DNA from: Candidatus Saccharimonadia bacterium
GTDB taxonomy: Bacteria; Patescibacteriota; Saccharimonadia; UBA4664; SCTI01
Length of the DNA: 64,000 nt
Assembly (NCBI GenBank): GCA_046597065.1
Contig: JBKJLI010000003.1
Coordinates: forward strand, 290,841 to 354,840
Direction of reading: 5' to 3'
Part shown: positions 1,917-54,422 of the stretch, in pieces
Position numbering within the stretch: position 1 is the stretch's first letter
Layout: each line of letters starts with the position of its first letter
Notes under the pieces: generated by a model
The model's database searches: none
Told to the model about the DNA's origin: nothing
What the model saw: the letters and a program-made list of their open reading frames with translations, nothing else
Translations under genes and position numbers: made by a program

Positions 1917-2824
1917 ATATAATTGCCCGTCGCCGTTGGTGGTATGCCATCTCGCTTTTGATTATTGTTCCCGGTACCATCGCCCTGTTTACGCATGGCC
2001 TAAAGCTTGGAATCGACTTTAAGGGTGGGCAACTGCTCGAAGTAGAGGGGCGGGTGGTTCAGGCTGATGTTAGCGGAGTGGCCGGTCAACTGAAAATTAA
2101 AGATTTATCGGTTACGCCAGCCGGAGGCAACACTTTGATCCGTTATCGCGATGAGGCCGAGCCAAAAACTCAGCAAAGCAACCGTCAACAGCTTAGTCAA
2201 ACCTTGGGCACATCTGGCCACAAAGAGGTTCGCTTTGAAACCGTGGGCCCATCTGTAAGTCAGGATATTACTCGAAATGCCTTAATTGCGGTCGGGCTGG
2301 CGGCCCTAGCCATTGTGCTCTACATAGCCTTTGCATTCCGAAATGTGCCACCACCAATGAAATCGTGGAATTTTGGCGTAGCCGCTATCATCGCTATGCT
2401 TCATGATGCGGTATTGTTACTGGGAGTTTTCTCGCTGCTCGGAATTTTCTTTAATGTTGAAGTCGACGCGCTGTTTGTAACCGCCATCCTTACTGTTATC
2501 GGTTTCTCTGTTCATGACACGATCGTTGTATTCGACCGTATCCGCGAAAATCTGCGACGCGAAAGAGGAGAGTTTAGCGATATTGTAAATAACAGTATCC
2601 TTGAAACCTTCGCCCGTTCGCTTAACACCTCGTTAACCGTATTATTAACACTTTTGGCGCTGTATTTGTTTGGTGGTGAGTCGATCAAGCTGTTCGTTTT
2701 AGCTTTGTTGATCGGTGTAGCATCGGGCACCTATTCATCAATCTTTAACGCCTCCCCAATTCTAGTTAGTTGGCACAATTGGAGGCTTAATCGCGAAGCC
2801 AAAGCAGCTGCCCGAAAAGCCTAA
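1913..2824 (+). CDS. secF: Protein translocase subunit SecF
   Basis: 303 aa multi-TM ORF directly coupled to secD (ATGA overlap). Confidence 0.9.
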   Translation: MNIIARRRWWYAISLLIIVPGTIALFTHGLKLGIDFKGGQLLEVEGRVVQADVSGVAGQLKIKDLSVTPAGGNTLIRYRDEAEPKTQQSNRQQLSQTLGTSGHKEVRFETVGPSVSQDITRNALIAVGLAALAIVLYIAFAFRNVPPPMKSWNFGVAAIIAMLHDAVLLLGVFSLLGIFFNVEVDALFVTAILTVIGFSVHDTIVVFDRIRENLRRERGEFSDIVNNSILETFARSLNTSLTVLLTLLALYLFGGESIKLFVLALLIGVASGTYSSIFNASPILVSWHNWRLNREAKAAARKA

Positions 2825-2886
2825 ACTAGGTCAAGCTCACTATTGCCGAACAAGTTTTGTATACTCGCAACTTAAGCGGTAGCGGT

Positions 2887-2915
2887 TTGCAATGAACCGG
2901 CGCTTTTAGTAATAT
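2887..2915 (+). promoter_or_regulatory. Sigma70-like promoter: TTGCAA, 17 nt spacer, TAATAT
   Basis: Read directly from sequence upstream of the 2970 ORF. An extended -10 element tTGtATACT also lies at about 2862-2872. Confidence 0.4.
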
Positions 2916-2969
2916 AAGTACAACACCAAGTGGGGTGCCAGTAACTCAAGTGAGGTTGTAGTTGTCACA

Positions 2970-3254
2970 ATGTTAGAGGTTTTTATTACATCTAAGACTC
3001 GCCGCAAGATCATCACGGTCTATACCAAGTATCCCGATCACAAGGCCCATGTGCGAGCTTTAGCCCAGATGATTCGTGAAGATCCCGGTAACGTACAGCG
3101 CGAACTTAAACGCCTGGCCGAAATCGGATTTGTAAAAGCCAGTAAGGAAGGCAACACCAACGTTTACTCGGCCAACCCCAAATTTTCGTTGTACAAAGAG
3201 CTGCAAAGCATGGTGCTAAAGTCACAAGCCTCCAAGCGCCGCCTGGTTCAATAA
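2970..3254 (+). CDS. Small winged helix-turn-helix DNA-binding protein (94 aa)
   Basis: The sequence VRALAQMIREDPGNVQRELKRLAEIGFVKASKEGNTNVYSANP fits a helix-turn-helix followed by a beta-hairpin wing. The gene has its own promoter and a hairpin terminator. Confidence 0.5.
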   Translation: MLEVFITSKTRRKIITVYTKYPDHKAHVRALAQMIREDPGNVQRELKRLAEIGFVKASKEGNTNVYSANPKFSLYKELQSMVLKSQASKRRLVQ

Positions 3255-3283
3255 GCCTAAAATTTGCCCTAATAAGATTGACG

Positions 3284-3309
3284 TACCCGGTATCAGCGGG
3301 TATTCTTTT
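3284..3309 (+). terminator. Intrinsic terminator-like hairpin: tacccg / cgggta stem followed by ttcttttg
   Basis: 6 bp stem, 7 nt loop and a T-rich tail immediately after the wHTH gene. Confidence 0.45.
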
Positions 3310-3355
3310 GGCCAAGCTCCGGGTGGAGGAGAGTACCTTTTAGAGAGGAATTTAG

Positions 3356-3721
3356 ATGCGCACGATTGGGCATTTCTCACGATTTGTGCTCGAGTCGCTC
3401 CGGCGGGGCTGGAATGGCCTGCGCCCCAAGACGATGAATCAAGTCATGATTGCCTTTAGGGGCATGAGAGACGAGATGACAGAGTCGGGCAGTTTGACCC
3501 CATACCTCGAGCGCTGGGGCCTGACCAGCTTTGAATATGAGGCCGCCTTATATTACGTACAAAGCGGGTATCGCCTGGATGCTGCTCTAGAGCTGGCAGA
3601 AGACGACGCTCTGCATGATCCTTATAACACCTGCCGAAAGGTCCAGGAAATCTTGCTGCGCTGGGGGGCGGTTTACAAATTGGAGCCGCAACATGGAAAC
3701 AATACAAAGGTGGTGATGTAA
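3356..3721 (+). CDS. Hypothetical protein (121 aa), paralogous to the next gene
   Basis: SD sequence gagagg lies 8 nt upstream. It shares the motif GLTxxE(F/Y)EAA(L/I)...LxRW(G/A) with the 3724 ORF. Confidence 0.5.
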   Translation: MRTIGHFSRFVLESLRRGWNGLRPKTMNQVMIAFRGMRDEMTESGSLTPYLERWGLTSFEYEAALYYVQSGYRLDAALELAEDDALHDPYNTCRKVQEILLRWGAVYKLEPQHGNNTKVVM

Positions 3722-3723
3722 TC

Positions 3724-4044
3724 ATGGGTATTGCAGCATTGCTTAGGGCGCCATTCGTATTGATCTCAGACCTGTTCGAGATCATTACGAGCGGTGAGGC
3801 CACGCTAGAGGACGCACTTGCCGAGGTCCGTCGAGTTAGATCGGATGGAAACGGTGATTTCTTTAAGTCCAGGGGGCTGACAATCACCGAGTTCGAGGCT
3901 GCAATTCGAGTGCTAGAGGCCGGCGGCCCAAGAAATGCACTCAGTCATTACGGTCGCGAGTCTCGGCTCAAAGATAAGCGCCGCTTTGATGCAACCGAGG
4001 CAGTCCTTTGTCGATGGGCGCTAGATCAACCATCTTGTCATTAA
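3724..4044 (+). CDS. Hypothetical protein (106 aa), paralog of the 3356 ORF
   Basis: Starts 3 nt after the upstream stop. Shares the GLTITEFEAAIRVLEAGG motif with its neighbour. Confidence 0.5.
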   Translation: MGIAALLRAPFVLISDLFEIITSGEATLEDALAEVRRVRSDGNGDFFKSRGLTITEFEAAIRVLEAGGPRNALSHYGRESRLKDKRRFDATEAVLCRWALDQPSCH

Positions 4045-32833: not shown

Positions 32834-33223
32834 TTAAGAGTCGCTAGAATCAGTATCAGTAGCCGTTTTGGTTGCAGTTTCAGCTTTGTCGGGCAGATCA
32901 ACGGTTTCGGCTTTAATCTCTTTGGCAATTTCTTTTAACTCTGGATCACCCTTTTGAGCCTCCTTTGCCTCATCGGCATCGGCTTTAGCCACTTTTTTGG
33001 CACCAGCGGCCTTGGCGGCAGCAGCAGCCTTGCGGCGAGCCTCAAACTTCTCAACACGACCGGCCGTATCTACCAGCTTTTGCTTGCCGGTGTAGAAGGG
33101 GTGACAGTTAGAGCATATTTCGACGGTGATCGATGGAACGGTTGAGCGCGTCACAAAATCGATGCCACAGCCGTTGCAGTGCACCTTAGTTTCCATAATT
33201 TCGGGATGAATTTGGGCTTTCAT
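32834..33223 (-). CDS. rpmE: 50S ribosomal protein L31 (zinc-ribbon type) with a Lys/Ala-rich C-terminal extension
   Basis: [20 protein letters not shown]...[11 protein letters not shown] followed by a ~60 aa [13 protein letters not shown]... tail. Start is trimmed to the conserved MKAQ. Confidence 0.8.
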
Positions 33224-33319
33224 AACCACACGATTGTATCTGAAAAGGCCCAACGGGTCAACCCTCGAAGCGCTTACATTGATCATTAAACACACAGATG
33301 CCCCCAAGGGAACATCTGT

Positions 33320-33835
33320 TCACCCTGAGGGCTTGGGTTTATAGCCGGTACAAATTTGACGATTAGCCACCCGTTGACCTGATTCGGTTGCATGCTGAAG
33401 GCGAACGTGCCCAAGGGCCGGCATATTCGCTGAGCAAAAGCGGTCACTGAAGCAGACAAGAGTTGTAAATATTCGAGTTGGGATAGTTGGTTCAAAGCGA
33501 CGGTTGTCCCAACGCACCATTACCTCGTTGGCCATTACCTTCGACCATTCCTCGAACAGTTCCGGATCGATGCAACATTTATGAGCTGTGATGGCAATGG
33601 CAACAAGATAGCGGTTACCGCCGTCTGCCAAGCATTCAATTGGGCTTTTGCCAAGGTACTCACACTCGCTTAGAAACCACTTAACGGCCTCGCCAATTGA
33701 GGTTTCAAAAGTTGTCATGATTTTCATCATGTCGACTAGATCAGCGGGTCTACAGATGACATCTACGGCGTCGAAGCCATAAGTAACCAGCCTTGCCATT
33801 TCTTTATCGTAACTGCCGTCTGCGTACACATTCAC
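33320..33835 (-). CDS. Hypothetical protein (171 aa), paralog of the 33836 ORF. Shares a W-x5-L-x3-P-(L/I)-x-CLADG motif reminiscent of the MbcA/ParS (DUF2384) antitoxin domain.
   Basis: Motif KWFLSECEYLGKSPIECLADGG. Its start abuts the stop of the upstream paralog. Confidence 0.45.
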   Translation of the reverse strand: MNVYADGSYDKEMARLVTYGFDAVDVICRPADLVDMMKIMTTFETSIGEAVKWFLSECEYLGKSPIECLADGGNRYLVAIAITAHKCCIDPELFEEWSKVMANEVMVRWDNRRFEPTIPTRIFTTLVCFSDRFCSANMPALGHVRLQHATESGQRVANRQICTGYKPKPSG

Positions 33836-34249
33836 CTACTTTCGACGTGCTCGGCGTTGTCGGCGCTCAAACTCGCTTGATGGGAAGGGGATCACAGTGC
33901 CAGTCGGTTGGCGCGATGCCCGAATGGCTTTAATCGCCTTGCCGCCGATTTCAGTTTGGCTTGCAATGAGCTTCTTAAATGCAGATGCCGGCTCTGCTTC
34001 ACAGTAAGCATCGGCTGCCATCATCACCTCTTCGAACATGCCATCAGCCAAGCAGCCGAGCGGTATATCTTCGAGGTGATTCGAGAAGCTGCGAAACCAA
34101 GACACAATCATTGCATCATCTAGCCCGTAGTCGGACATGAACTTGGCTACACGTGCAAATTCCGATGGTTTACAAGTAATTTCATCATCGCGGAATCCTA
34201 AGACGTTCAACCAAAGAACGGCAAGATCCTCTTCTTCGTACGTACTCAT
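33836..34249 (-). CDS. Hypothetical protein (137 aa), first gene of the tandem paralog pair, with a DUF2384-like motif
   Basis: Motif SWFRSFSNHLEDIPLGCLADGMFEEV. Confidence 0.45.
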   Translation of the reverse strand: MSTYEEEDLAVLWLNVLGFRDDEITCKPSEFARVAKFMSDYGLDDAMIVSWFRSFSNHLEDIPLGCLADGMFEEVMMAADAYCEAEPASAFKKLIASQTEIGGKAIKAIRASRQPTGTVIPFPSSEFERRQRRARRK

Positions 34250-34424
34250 TTTGTCAAACTCCCTGAACTCGATGGTTCAAATCTGGTGTGACTTTAACAC
34301 AGTCTAACCCTTGCGCCAACAGGTTAAATTTGATACATTGGCTTGGTCCGAACTAATTAATGAAGCAGCTCGTTACTAAAATCCTCCGTATTCAACGGCC
34401 GGCGAGCGAAGCACAAGGAGTCAT

Positions 34425-35177
34425 ATGGCAGAGACAAACGTAAAAGAACTATTAGAAGCTGGTGCCCATTTCGGCCACCAAACTCACCGCTGGAACCCCC
34501 GTATGGGCCAGTATATTTTTGGTGTTCGTGGCGGCGTCCACATCATCGACTTAACTAAGACGGCCGAGCTACTAGACGAGGCGTTGAGCTTTGTTGAAAC
34601 TACTGCTGAAAACGGTGGCAAGGTGCTGTTAGTTGGCACAAAGCGACAGGCTCGCCAAATTATTCGTGAAGAGGCCGAGGCTGCTCACCAGCCTTTTGTT
34701 ACCGAGCGATGGTTGGGGGGAATGTTAACCAACTTTCGCACTATCCAAACGCGAATAAAGCGACTTAAATCTATTGATGCAGGCTTAGAGTCGGGTGAAT
34801 ATACCAGCAAATACAACAAAAAAGAGGTACTGGATCTAACCAATGAGGGCATTGCCTTGCAGCGCATTTTTGGAGGCATTAAGGATATGGGTGAGTTGCC
34901 AAAGGCCATTTTTGTTGTTGACATGGTTCGAGACTCGATTGCAATCGCCGAGGCACGTAACTTAAATATTCCCGTTATCGCCATTGTTGATACCAATGCC
35001 AACCCAGAGTTAGCAGATTACCCGGTGCCAGCCAATGATGACGCTATAAAGTCGCTACGGATGATAACCCACGCCGTGGCTGATGCCGCCAACCGCGGTG
35101 CTCAGGCGCATGCCAAAAAAGCCGCCGATCAGCCAACTGAAGCCATTGCCGACAGCGACCAGCCAAAAGCTAAGTAG
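34425..35177 (+). CDS. rpsB: 30S ribosomal protein S2
   Basis: AGAHFGHQTHRWNPRM. SD sequence aaggag lies 6 nt upstream. Confidence 0.95.
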   Translation: MAETNVKELLEAGAHFGHQTHRWNPRMGQYIFGVRGGVHIIDLTKTAELLDEALSFVETTAENGGKVLLVGTKRQARQIIREEAEAAHQPFVTERWLGGMLTNFRTIQTRIKRLKSIDAGLESGEYTSKYNKKEVLDLTNEGIALQRIFGGIKDMGELPKAIFVVDMVRDSIAIAEARNLNIPVIAIVDTNANPELADYPVPANDDAIKSLRMITHAVADAANRGAQAHAKKAADQPTEAIADSDQPKAK

Positions 35178-51990: not shown

Positions 51991-52125
51991 AAGCGTTGAA
52001 ACACAAAGGCCACGTGCTTTCAACTTAACCCCGTTCATCCAGAAAGGATGATGCCTCGTGGCAACTGACAGCAGGATGGTCGGGGGAAACTTCCTGGCCA
52101 CAACGACCACCAAGGAGAAGTGACG

Positions 52126-53355
52126 ATGCGCTCCATGCTCATCAAGCTGTTCCTGGTCGCGCTCGTCGCGGCCATCTTCACCATCCCGGCAGTGGCCTCG
52201 GCCGCTTCCACGGCACCGGTCGCTCACGCGGCTTCGTCGTACTGCGGCCCCCCGGCCATGAACAAGACCCAGTGGGTTTCGTTCTGGAGAGACCATCCGA
52301 ACTCGTCGCTCACCAAGAGCTTCGAACGGCTGGTCCGAGCGGACGCCAAGCACACCCACATCAAGAAGGATCAGACCTTCTTGTCGTGGGCTCAGTCCCC
52401 GAACATCAAGATCGTCAGGACACCGCCTGGCTACAGGCTGGATTCCAACACCTATTGCCCTGGTGGGCAGTACCAGCCGTATCCAGATCTCCTGGGCTAC
52501 GGCAACCAACTCACGCCTTCATGGTGTGAGGGTGGCGCGAAGCCGTCCACGACGGTGACGAAGGTGCAAAAGCGTGGCAAGTGGTACTACAAGTACACCA
52601 CCACTGTCACTGAGTCCTGCGCGCCTCTCGCCAAGGGATACTGCCGCAACCGGGCGACTGGGAAGTCGTTCAAGGTCGTCAAGCGCAAGGTGACGTATAA
52701 GCGCATCAAGCACAAGACGCCCAAGTGCGGCTGCAAGCCCAAGCCCAAGCCGCCGCCTGCACAGGTCAACTACTGCCCCAACGGTTCGCCGGTGGTCAGC
52801 GGTGTTGCCTGTGTCAATCAGTCTCAAGCCCAGGAGGTCAAGCAGGACTGCAAGGGTCCGAACGTTGACAGCACTCAGTGCATCAGCATTCAGATCCAGC
52901 AGCAGATCGTGTGCGGCAACGGCACGATCATCATCGGGAGCAGTACCACGACGTCGACCACTGGTGACCAGTGCAACACGGTCATCGTGGTGCCACCCCC
53001 GCCGCCGCCGGTCTGCATCCCGCCGACCACCGGTACGTACCCGAACTGTCAGGTTCCCACCTGTCCGGCGGGCACAACCGGTACCTACCCGGTCTGCAAT
53101 GCTCCGGCGGTTTGCCCCGCTGGTGACCTGCAGGCAACCGACACCACCTTGAGTGGCTTCGGTTACCGTACTGGTGACTTTCTCGGCATTGCCGGGGGGT
53201 ATTTCCAGTACTACGTTCGGGCTGATGGTTCGGGCAAGCTGTTCTTTGCGAAGGATTACACCTCGGTGCAGTCCAGTTACACGAACGGCAGCCCGATCTG
53301 TGGCAAGGCCAACCCGGCCGGCCCCGGAGGCACACCGCCTCCGCCGTCGCCGTAG
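52126..53355 (+). CDS. Secreted Cys-rich, Pro-rich protein encoded in a high-G+C island
   Basis: SD sequence aaggag lies 8 nt before the ATG. It has a signal peptide, many Cys residues, a PPPPPPP linker and strong GC3 bias. Antisense ORFs here are artefacts of the G+C content. Confidence 0.55.
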   Translation: MRSMLIKLFLVALVAAIFTIPAVASAASTAPVAHAASSYCGPPAMNKTQWVSFWRDHPNSSLTKSFERLVRADAKHTHIKKDQTFLSWAQSPNIKIVRTPPGYRLDSNTYCPGGQYQPYPDLLGYGNQLTPSWCEGGAKPSTTVTKVQKRGKWYYKYTTTVTESCAPLAKGYCRNRATGKSFKVVKRKVTYKRIKHKTPKCGCKPKPKPPPAQVNYCPNGSPVVSGVACVNQSQAQEVKQDCKGPNVDSTQCISIQIQQQIVCGNGTIIIGSSTTTSTTGDQCNTVIVVPPPPPPVCIPPTTGTYPNCQVPTCPAGTTGTYPVCNAPAVCPAGDLQATDTTLSGFGYRTGDFLGIAGGYFQYYVRADGSGKLFFAKDYTSVQSSYTNGSPICGKANPAGPGGTPPPPSP

Positions 53356-53591: not shown

Positions 53592-54422
53592 ATGAAACTT
53601 ACCAAGACTCGAATAGCTGCTGCTGTTGCCACTAGTGCAATTGCAGTTGCGCTTCCAATCGCTGCTTTAGCGGCTTTTGGTCCCGATCGTCAAACCTATG
53701 TCTGTGGCCAGGCTGGCATCTGCCAGGGTGCTGACCACGTTCAGTTTGACTCTTTTACCAATAACCCAAGCTACGATCAGCATGATGAGCGTAACTTCTT
53801 AACCATTCGTCCGGCTGCCGGAGGTGCTTACACCGATGTGCAGACCCTAACGGTTGGTCAAGAGTATGTCGTTCGTGCTTACGTACACAACAATGCCGAT
53901 CCAGCGTTAACCAACACACCCAGCGATTACACCGCCGAAAACACCGCCTTTAAGGTGGCAATTCCTAGCGAAGTAAACGGTGACGCGTTGGTTACCGGTA
54001 CCATTTCAGCTTCAAACGCTCAGCCAGGTAGTGTTTATGACACTGTTAGCCTAAAGAGTGGTGAAAAGCTAAAGCTAAACTACGTGGCCGGTTCGGCCAA
54101 GTGGACCAGCAATGGTGCTTCTAACGGTGCTGCTTTAAGCGACAACGTTTTAACTAGTGGCGCTTTACTTGGTTACGATAGCCTAAACGGTGAACTACCA
54201 GGATGCTTCGGCTTTTCCGGTTATGTCAGCCTAAAGGTTAAGGCCGAGAAAATCGAAACTCCAGTAACCCCACCCGTTACTACCACCCCAACTGCCTTAC
54301 CGCAGACAGGTGCTGAAGCCGCCGGCCTAGCCGGTGTCGCCGGAACCGGTGTTGTTGGTTACGCTGCTATGGCTTATCGCCGCAGCAAGCGTGCCCTCGC
54401 TACCGCCATCCGCAACAAGTAA
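53592..54422 (+). CDS. LPXTG-anchored cell-wall surface protein (sortase substrate)
   Basis: Signal peptide, then an LPQTG motif followed by a hydrophobic stretch and an RRSKR tail. Confidence 0.8.
   Translation: MKLTKTRIAAAVATSAIAVALPIAALAAFGPDRQTYVCGQAGICQGADHVQFDSFTNNPSYDQHDERNFLTIRPAAGGAYTDVQTLTVGQEYVVRAYVHNNADPALTNTPSDYTAENTAFKVAIPSEVNGDALVTGTISASNAQPGSVYDTVSLKSGEKLKLNYVAGSAKWTSNGASNGAALSDNVLTSGALLGYDSLNGELPGCFGFSGYVSLKVKAEKIETPVTPPVTTTPTALPQTGAEAAGLAGVAGTGVVGYAAMAYRRSKRALATAIRNK

Follow-up and report, generated by a model that had tools for sequence, protein, structure and literature searches.

What two small, abutting genes between rpmE and rpsB encode is the question raised by a 64,000-nt stretch of DNA (hereafter the window) from Candidatus Saccharimonadia bacterium (assembly GCA_046597065.1, contig JBKJLI010000003.1, positions 290,841-354,840 of the forward strand), a housekeeping core region in the genome of this candidate phyla radiation member (Saccharibacteria/TM7). 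Gene A (33836-34249, minus strand) runs from an ATG at 34249 to a TAG stop at 33838-33836 and encodes 137 amino acids (aa). Its paralog, gene B (33320-33835, minus strand), encodes 171 aa from a GTG at 33835 to a TGA stop at 33322-33320; gene calling done independently on a public contig of identical sequence starts B at the GTG at 33829 instead, giving 169 aa, and likewise gives A 137 aa. A first-pass annotation of the locus had recognized in both products a motif resembling the DUF2384 domain of MbcA/ParS antitoxins and had proposed an orphan antitoxin or immunity duo, or a fused mini-toxin system. The explanation favored here, with a probability of about one half, is that A and B form a lineage-restricted cassette of partner-binding helical modules, related at best remotely, at the superfamily level, to the Rv2175c_C (PF18367) and DUF2384 (PF09722) domains, and a canonical toxin-antitoxin function is considered unlikely.

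Two divergent paralogs with a common core

A and B both contain the motif W-F-x-S-x4-L-x3-P-[LI]-x-C-L-A-D-G, located at residues 51-70 of A (34040-34099, minus strand) and residues 53-72 of B (33620-33679, minus strand). The paralogy that the annotation had noted is upheld by BLASTP, which aligns the two proteins over 57 ungapped residues with 32% identity (E=3e-9), and by a Smith-Waterman z-score of 14.5 against shuffles. Gapless similarity extends to approximately residue 85 and delimits a common core of about 70 aa. In A, this helical core is assigned to aa 14-85 (33995-34210, minus strand) on the basis of BLASTP against B, the ungapped alignment, the hhalign comparison described below and the helices predicted by AlphaFold2 (AF2); in B, it is assigned to aa 16-87 in the 171-aa numbering (33575-33790, minus strand) on the basis of BLASTP and the ungapped alignment, and a low-confidence AF2 model displays an A-like helix pattern. 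No significant internal repeat was detected within the core; the two Cys residues conserved between the paralogs are C26 and C66 in A and C28 and C68 in B. When the two genes are compared by codon position, identities of 0.58, 0.53 and 0.28 are obtained for the first, second and third positions, respectively, and 9 of the 20 residues identical between A and B are specified by different codons. Together, these values indicate an old duplication whose synonymous sites are saturated and whose similarity has been kept at the protein level.

The coding status of the pair was assessed with a codon log-likelihood trained on 38 long open reading frames (ORFs) of the window, on which genes score 0.31±0.08 per codon. 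A reaches 0.19 and B 0.14 per codon. The annotated frame alone has a positive value, and the five others range from -0.28 to -0.91; the cores of both genes score 0.23-0.24 (0.24 for the N-terminal domain of B). As judged from these sequence statistics, A and B are genuine protein-coding genes and constitute a lineage-restricted pair derived from an ancient tandem duplication.

Both products are predicted to be small cytoplasmic all-alpha proteins in which an acidic core of approximately 70-85 aa is followed by a basic tail, and no membrane segment was found in either. This charge layout is common to the two paralogs, the core having a net charge of -14 in A and -7 in B. The tail of A (aa 91-137; 33839-33979, minus strand), which follows an acidic helical N-terminal domain, is Arg-rich, has an isoelectric point (pI) of 12 and a net charge of +10, and ends in ...EFERRQRRARRK. 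The C-terminal tail of B (aa 93-171; 33323-33559, minus strand), the status of which is uncertain, has a pI of 9.4, a net charge of +4 and three Cys residues. Counted from the end of the core, the tail of A is very basic and about 47-52 aa long, and that of B measures about 79-86 aa. The "extra" C-terminal region of some 80 aa with which B had been credited therefore has the right length but is not an addition: it is the whole post-core tail of B, A has a tail as well, and B is just 34 aa longer. Similarity between the two tails is not significant, and the tail of B has no family match in Pfam, NCBIfam, PADLOC or PHROGs.

The AF2 model of A is all-helical and of low confidence, with a predicted local distance difference test score (pLDDT) of 57.9 overall and of 70-84 over residues 1-50; helices are placed at residues 3-17, 28-40, 45-59 and 64-81, and the pLDDT falls below 50 over residues 97-128 of the tail. 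The AF2 model of B, with a pLDDT of 42.8, is too poor to be used in fold searches, and for the C-terminal region, whose structure the first-pass annotation had proposed to predict, it shows no fold (pLDDT <45). The basic tails are probably disordered. Foldseek searches against PDB and BFVD gave no match at E<0.5.

Remote resemblances and the readings they invite

Rv2175c is a PknL substrate and DNA-binding protein of Mycobacterium tuberculosis, and its PF18367 domain (Rv2175c_C) corresponds to residues 78-146 of PDB 2KFS. PF18367 is also the only Pfam family matched by both A and B: the matches are sub-threshold and lie over the motif, with scores of 12.9/12.7 bits for A (E 0.12-0.14) and 11.9 bits for B (E 0.25; residues 47-73 of the 169-aa form). 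For a profile comparison, the sequence of Rv2175c was verified against 2KFS, and three homologues were gathered and aligned with it into a four-sequence family. In hhalign, the A+B alignment matches this family with a probability of 47.5% and P=1.9e-4 over 43 columns, the strongest of the profile-profile matches, residues 36-78 of A being aligned with residues 86-140 of Rv2175c. A local re-run of the comparison yielded a score of 25.4, which was reached by none of 200 column shuffles (10.2±2.0, maximum 18.7; z ~7.6), and the reversed profile scored 11.3. Furthermore, a hidden Markov model (HMM) of Rv2175c_C built from the four sequences ranked A and B first and second (E ~0.5) among 6,484 decoys, namely the six-frame ORFs of the window and of 80 related loci.

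The positions W-[LF]...L...P...(E)V, which are conserved in the alignment of the Rv2175c family, match the invariant positions of A and B, and three of them (W, P and V) do not vary in the DUF2384 alignment either. The Rv2175c family can itself be aligned with a DUF2384 profile (hhalign probability 65%, P=6e-5; W, L and P positions matched), and PF18367 and PF09722 appear to be remote relatives. This alignment explains the DUF2384-like impression that the motif had made: the likeness persists as a remote resemblance by way of PF18367, but it does not extend to membership of PF09722. Taken together, the profile comparisons lean towards the A/B core being a stand-alone form that is very distantly related to the helical module of Rv2175c_C/DUF2384. 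The C-terminal domain of Rv2175c has been described as a small all-helical "effector domain" whose partner is unknown (PMC6151718). Under the favored explanation, the A/B core would likewise operate as a protein-protein interaction module; the paralogs would probably pair with each other, possibly as a heterodimer, or with some other partner, and contacts of the Arg-rich tails could be with nucleic acid or with the acidic core. The cassette as a whole would then serve as a small accessory adaptor or regulator and not as a canonical toxin-antitoxin pair.

A number of observations speak against this explanation. The PF18367 scores of 12-13 bits compare with a gathering score of 26.4, all family matches are sub-threshold, and A and B are members of neither Pfam family. 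The hhalign probability stays below 50%, and the profiles behind it are thin, consisting of four sequences for Rv2175c and two for A/B. Because the motif is common to both proteins, A and B are not independent witnesses, and the significance derived from column shuffles is overstated since such shuffles break helical periodicity. In addition, the last 79 codons of B have a coding score of just 0.035, and no search yielded a homologue against which conservation could be judged.

Queried with A and with the A+B profile, a word-indexed set of 5.8 G clustered proteins returned self matches only. With B as the query, phmmer was run exhaustively over 1.84 G representatives and found no homologue; this search missed even paralog A at E<=0.001, and relatives with <=~32% core identity would thus escape it. 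No relative emerged from back-translated pattern scans of Joint Genome Institute metagenome and viral contigs (including the pattern WF..S....L...P[LI].CLADG), nothing was found by tblastn of A against phages and plasmids, and neither protein has a significant match in Pfam, NCBIfam, PADLOC or PHROGs. Two candidates that did surface were rejected. A 2,540-aa eukaryote-like repeat protein (P0003; phmmer with B, E=4.7e-7, 8 stretches) is an artefact in which a short stretch of low similarity is summed over repeats. An acyl carrier protein-like reading, prompted by a phmmer match to the mupirocin didomain acyl carrier protein in PDB (2L22, E=0.049), was discarded in view of a missing attachment Ser and the lack of a PF00550 match; at the position of the phosphopantetheine-attachment Ser of the (D/G)-L-D-S motif, A has GLDD and B has Ile.

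Among the alternatives, the one that survives best holds that A and B are unrelated lineage-specific proteins, either fast-evolving or of de novo origin, and that their likeness to Rv2175c_C/DUF2384 reflects chance or the convergence of a common "W-[LF] ... L ... P-x-x-x-L" helix-loop-helix pattern. This possibility, doubtful but serious, draws on the failure of protein, metagenome, viral, phage and plasmid searches to reveal a homologue and on the sub-threshold family scores. It also gains from the fact that BLASTP places A on the antitoxin MbcA in a different register (KPSEF/KPADL), which marks the pattern as degenerate, and from the neighboring genomes, which fill the same slot with other Pfam-less proteins. 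What it accommodates poorly is that, among 24,736 Pfam models, the single match of both proteins is to a family that itself aligns to the very one that the first-pass annotation had named beforehand, and that the W, L, P and (E)V positions, conserved across the Rv2175c family alignment, are among the columns aligned. The hhalign P value, the shuffles that all fell short of the real score and the two leading ranks among the 6,484 decoys likewise tell against coincidence.

A second alternative retains the original proposal of an orphan antitoxin or immunity duo, in which A and B would be helix-turn-helix (HTH)-less DUF2384-type proteins that neutralize a RES/ART-type toxin targeting nicotinamide adenine dinucleotide (NAD+), encoded elsewhere in the genome or delivered by another cell. 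The Rv2175c_C/DUF2384-type module binds the toxin in antitoxins, and ParS-type members without an HTH exist. The direct test of the family assignment was negative: PF09722 (Xre_MbcA_ParS_C/DUF2384; gathering score 24.5 bits) did not match A, B or their isolated N-terminal domains even at E<=10, yet the same Pfam scan detected all positive controls, namely MbcA (32 bits; sequence checked against PDB 6FKG) and the bona fide family members P0004 (57.8), P0018 (65.7) and P0022 (42.9). A home-made DUF2384 profile was also prepared from 21 sequences (PDB-verified fragments and 18 database members); it is narrow, with MbcA itself at just 16.6 bits. Against this narrow profile, hhalign of A+B recovers the register seen by the first-pass annotation with a probability of 1.9% and P=0.026, and hmmsearch --max gives 0.6 and -0.4 bits, in effect a score of zero, for the two proteins. 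The corresponding local re-run scored no better than column-shuffled controls, and the DUF2384 HMM placed neither A nor B in its top 12 among the 6,484 decoy ORFs.

No RES or other toxin gene lies within ±10 kb of the pair, where all genes have housekeeping Pfam domains or none, and the less readily recognized ORFs in other parts of the window show no toxin domain; the earlier remark that no RES-like or other toxin ORF adjoins the pair is accordingly correct. The Pfam scan detected no HTH family in A or B, and PADLOC did not match either. Moreover, approximately 35 residues precede the matched stretch and 50-90 follow it, which makes the domain internal rather than C-terminal. An orphan antitoxin is consequently improbable, and neither it nor a fused mini-toxin finds support in these results.

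A broader variant of the same idea would make A and B a new class of HTH-less tandem orphan partner-binding proteins descended from the Rv2175c_C/DUF2384 superfamily, a duo for immunity or anti-defence that has no toxin gene of its own and either neutralizes RES/ART-type NAD+ toxins or disturbs a signalling partner of the host or of the cell itself. Saccharibacteria are typically epibionts on Actinomycetota, and the Rv2175c family is presumably mainly actinobacterial, so the epibiont might use the pair in either way; as a whole, this variant is highly speculative and very unlikely to be right.

The cassette and its variable slot

The pair was correctly placed by the first-pass annotation as two abutting minus-strand genes of 137 and 171 aa between rpmE and rpsB. 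On the minus strand, prmC, prfA, rpmE, B and A follow one another in map order, and rpsB, tsf, frr and uppS continue on the plus strand. Both the ORF list and the public-contig gene call, which also agree on A, place rpmE at 32834-33226 (minus strand), flanking B, and rpsB at 34425-35177 (plus strand), flanking A; the ORF list contains no further ORF in the gap. An identical 20.4-kb stretch is present in one other public assembly, and the nearest GTDB representatives are metagenome-assembled genomes of Saccharimonadia with RpsB identities of 69-74%. The RpmE protein (L31) encoded next to B has 130 aa and a C-terminal extension of about 60 aa rich in Lys, Ala, Glu and Asp, and the 120-aa RpmE of a relative (locus L003) has a similar extension. 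Farther along the window, two adjacent genes at 52120-53355 and 53592-54422 (both plus strand) encode proteins of 411 and 276 aa with signal-peptide-like N-termini and no Pfam match.

A Shine-Dalgarno (SD)-like AGGGAG (34259-34264, minus strand) is found 9 nt upstream of the ATG of A. Farther upstream, a weak promoter-like site, TTGGCG-17 nt-TAAAGT (34291-34319, minus strand), might drive the A-B pair; it agrees with the consensus at 8 of 12 positions and scores under the promoter-scan threshold. B has no good SD of its own, its GTG follows directly after the TAG stop of A, and its translation probably depends on coupling to that stop. A terminator-like hairpin with an 11-bp stem (33294-33319, minus strand) lies directly 3' of the B stop. 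Beyond it comes the rpmE promoter-like site, TTGACC-17 nt-TACAAT (33233-33261, minus strand), which related genomes retain and which forms the downstream limit of the inserted cassette. Relatives also retain a block of sequence upstream of rpsB, and the cassette is therefore placed between two conserved regulatory regions, the rpmE promoter and the rpsB promoter/leader. No GC anomaly or flanking repeats, as marks of a mobile element, were found at the cassette, and Rfam scans of the window and the region revealed no RNA gene that would account for the A and B ORFs.

The block upstream of rpsB deserves mention in its own right. It consists of AACTAATTAATGA at 34351-34363 and TAAAATCCTCCG, which contains an anti-SD-like CCUCC, at 34377-34388 (plus strand); both are shared with three relatives (L003, L005 and L007). 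These blocks may represent an S2 leader or operator; they have no Rfam match, and their minimum free energy is no better than that of shuffles.

That A and B, or at least B and its tail, are decaying or non-functional ORFs left by an old insertion is scarcely credible: their coding scores do lie 1.4-2 standard deviations below those of window genes (with the tail of B at ~0.035), B lacks a convincing SD, both AF2 models are of poor quality and none of the relatives has the pair, but the two reading frames run uninterrupted through 137 and 171 codons, coding scores clearly favor the annotated frame over the five others, the codon-position pattern points to long-term protein-level constraint on both cores, and the cassette is equipped with a terminator, an SD and coupled stop and start codons.

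The divergent rpmE/rpsB arrangement is kept in 31 related loci, with a gap of 159-3042 bp. The cargo in this gap is unrelated from one locus to another, and 9 of the 10 cargo proteins tested have no Pfam match. The gap is devoid of genes in two close relatives (L005 and L007) and holds a 5-formyltetrahydrofolate cyclo-ligase gene in L003, and neither tblastn nor phmmer found relatives of A or B in the gap ORFs of the 80 related loci. The rpmE-rpsB gap, which spans 33227-34424 in the window, thus emerges as a recurrent slot for lineage-specific genes across Saccharimonadia, and it offers a convenient setting for studying gene gain in reduced genomes.

Several features of the slot in other genomes were observed in passing. 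Some cargo families recur in it, namely those of L015/L033, L017/L032/L058, L008/L014/L048 and L013/L035. The slot of L006 holds a second tandem paralog pair (1944-2804 and 2925-3821, both minus strand) of 286 and 298 aa, which are 31% identical (E=7e-27), contain a Walker-A-like GxxGxGKT motif and have no Pfam match. In L003, approximately 530 nt between rpmE and the cyclo-ligase gene (2760-3290, minus strand) have a GC content of 58%, compared with 50% for the locus, and contain only short Arg/Pro/Gly-rich ORFs of <=132 aa. The RNA fold predicted for this segment is more stable than 100 of 100 shuffles (z=-3.1), and no Rfam, tRNA or tmRNA match was found; it may be an undescribed structured RNA.

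Relation to known systems

The call of an orphan antitoxin, plausible from the motif, fails the family test, and the pair takes its place as one of many lineage-specific unknowns in candidate phyla radiation genomes. If the link to Rv2175c_C/DUF2384 is true, it would mean that a small helical module for partner binding also exists on its own, duplicated and fitted with basic tails, and it would add to the evidence for PF18367 and PF09722 as one superfamily.

Three known systems invite comparison. The Xre/MbcA/ParS proteins (PF09722; PDB 6FKG, 6D0H, 6GW6, 8GUG and 8QNL) differ from A and B, which have neither a PF09722 match nor an Xre-like HTH and are not flanked by a RES/ART toxin gene; the chains examined (those of MbcA, Xre in 6GW6, 8GUG and ParS) carry the domain at the C-terminus, whereas in A and B it is internal. 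With generic type II toxin-antitoxin bicistrons, the cassette shares small abutting genes, coupled translation, a terminator of its own and a variable genomic slot. Unlike such bicistrons, however, its two products are paralogous, match no toxin or antitoxin in Pfam, NCBIfam or PADLOC, and have no detected DNA-binding fold.

Rv2175c itself carries an N-terminal winged HTH (residues 18-77), whereas A and B have no HTH and an N-terminal segment too short for one. The NCBIfam models, the basis of PGAP names such as "Rv2175c family DNA-binding protein", do not match either protein. The Tsukamurella homologue of Rv2175c adjoins a gene for an Stk1-family Ser/Thr kinase, in contrast to the A/B locus, where no kinase domain occurs within ±10 kb. 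Finally, what sets A and B apart from Rv2175c on their own side is a combination of basic tails, two conserved Cys residues, organization as a tandem pair and occurrence in Saccharimonadia rather than in Actinomycetota.
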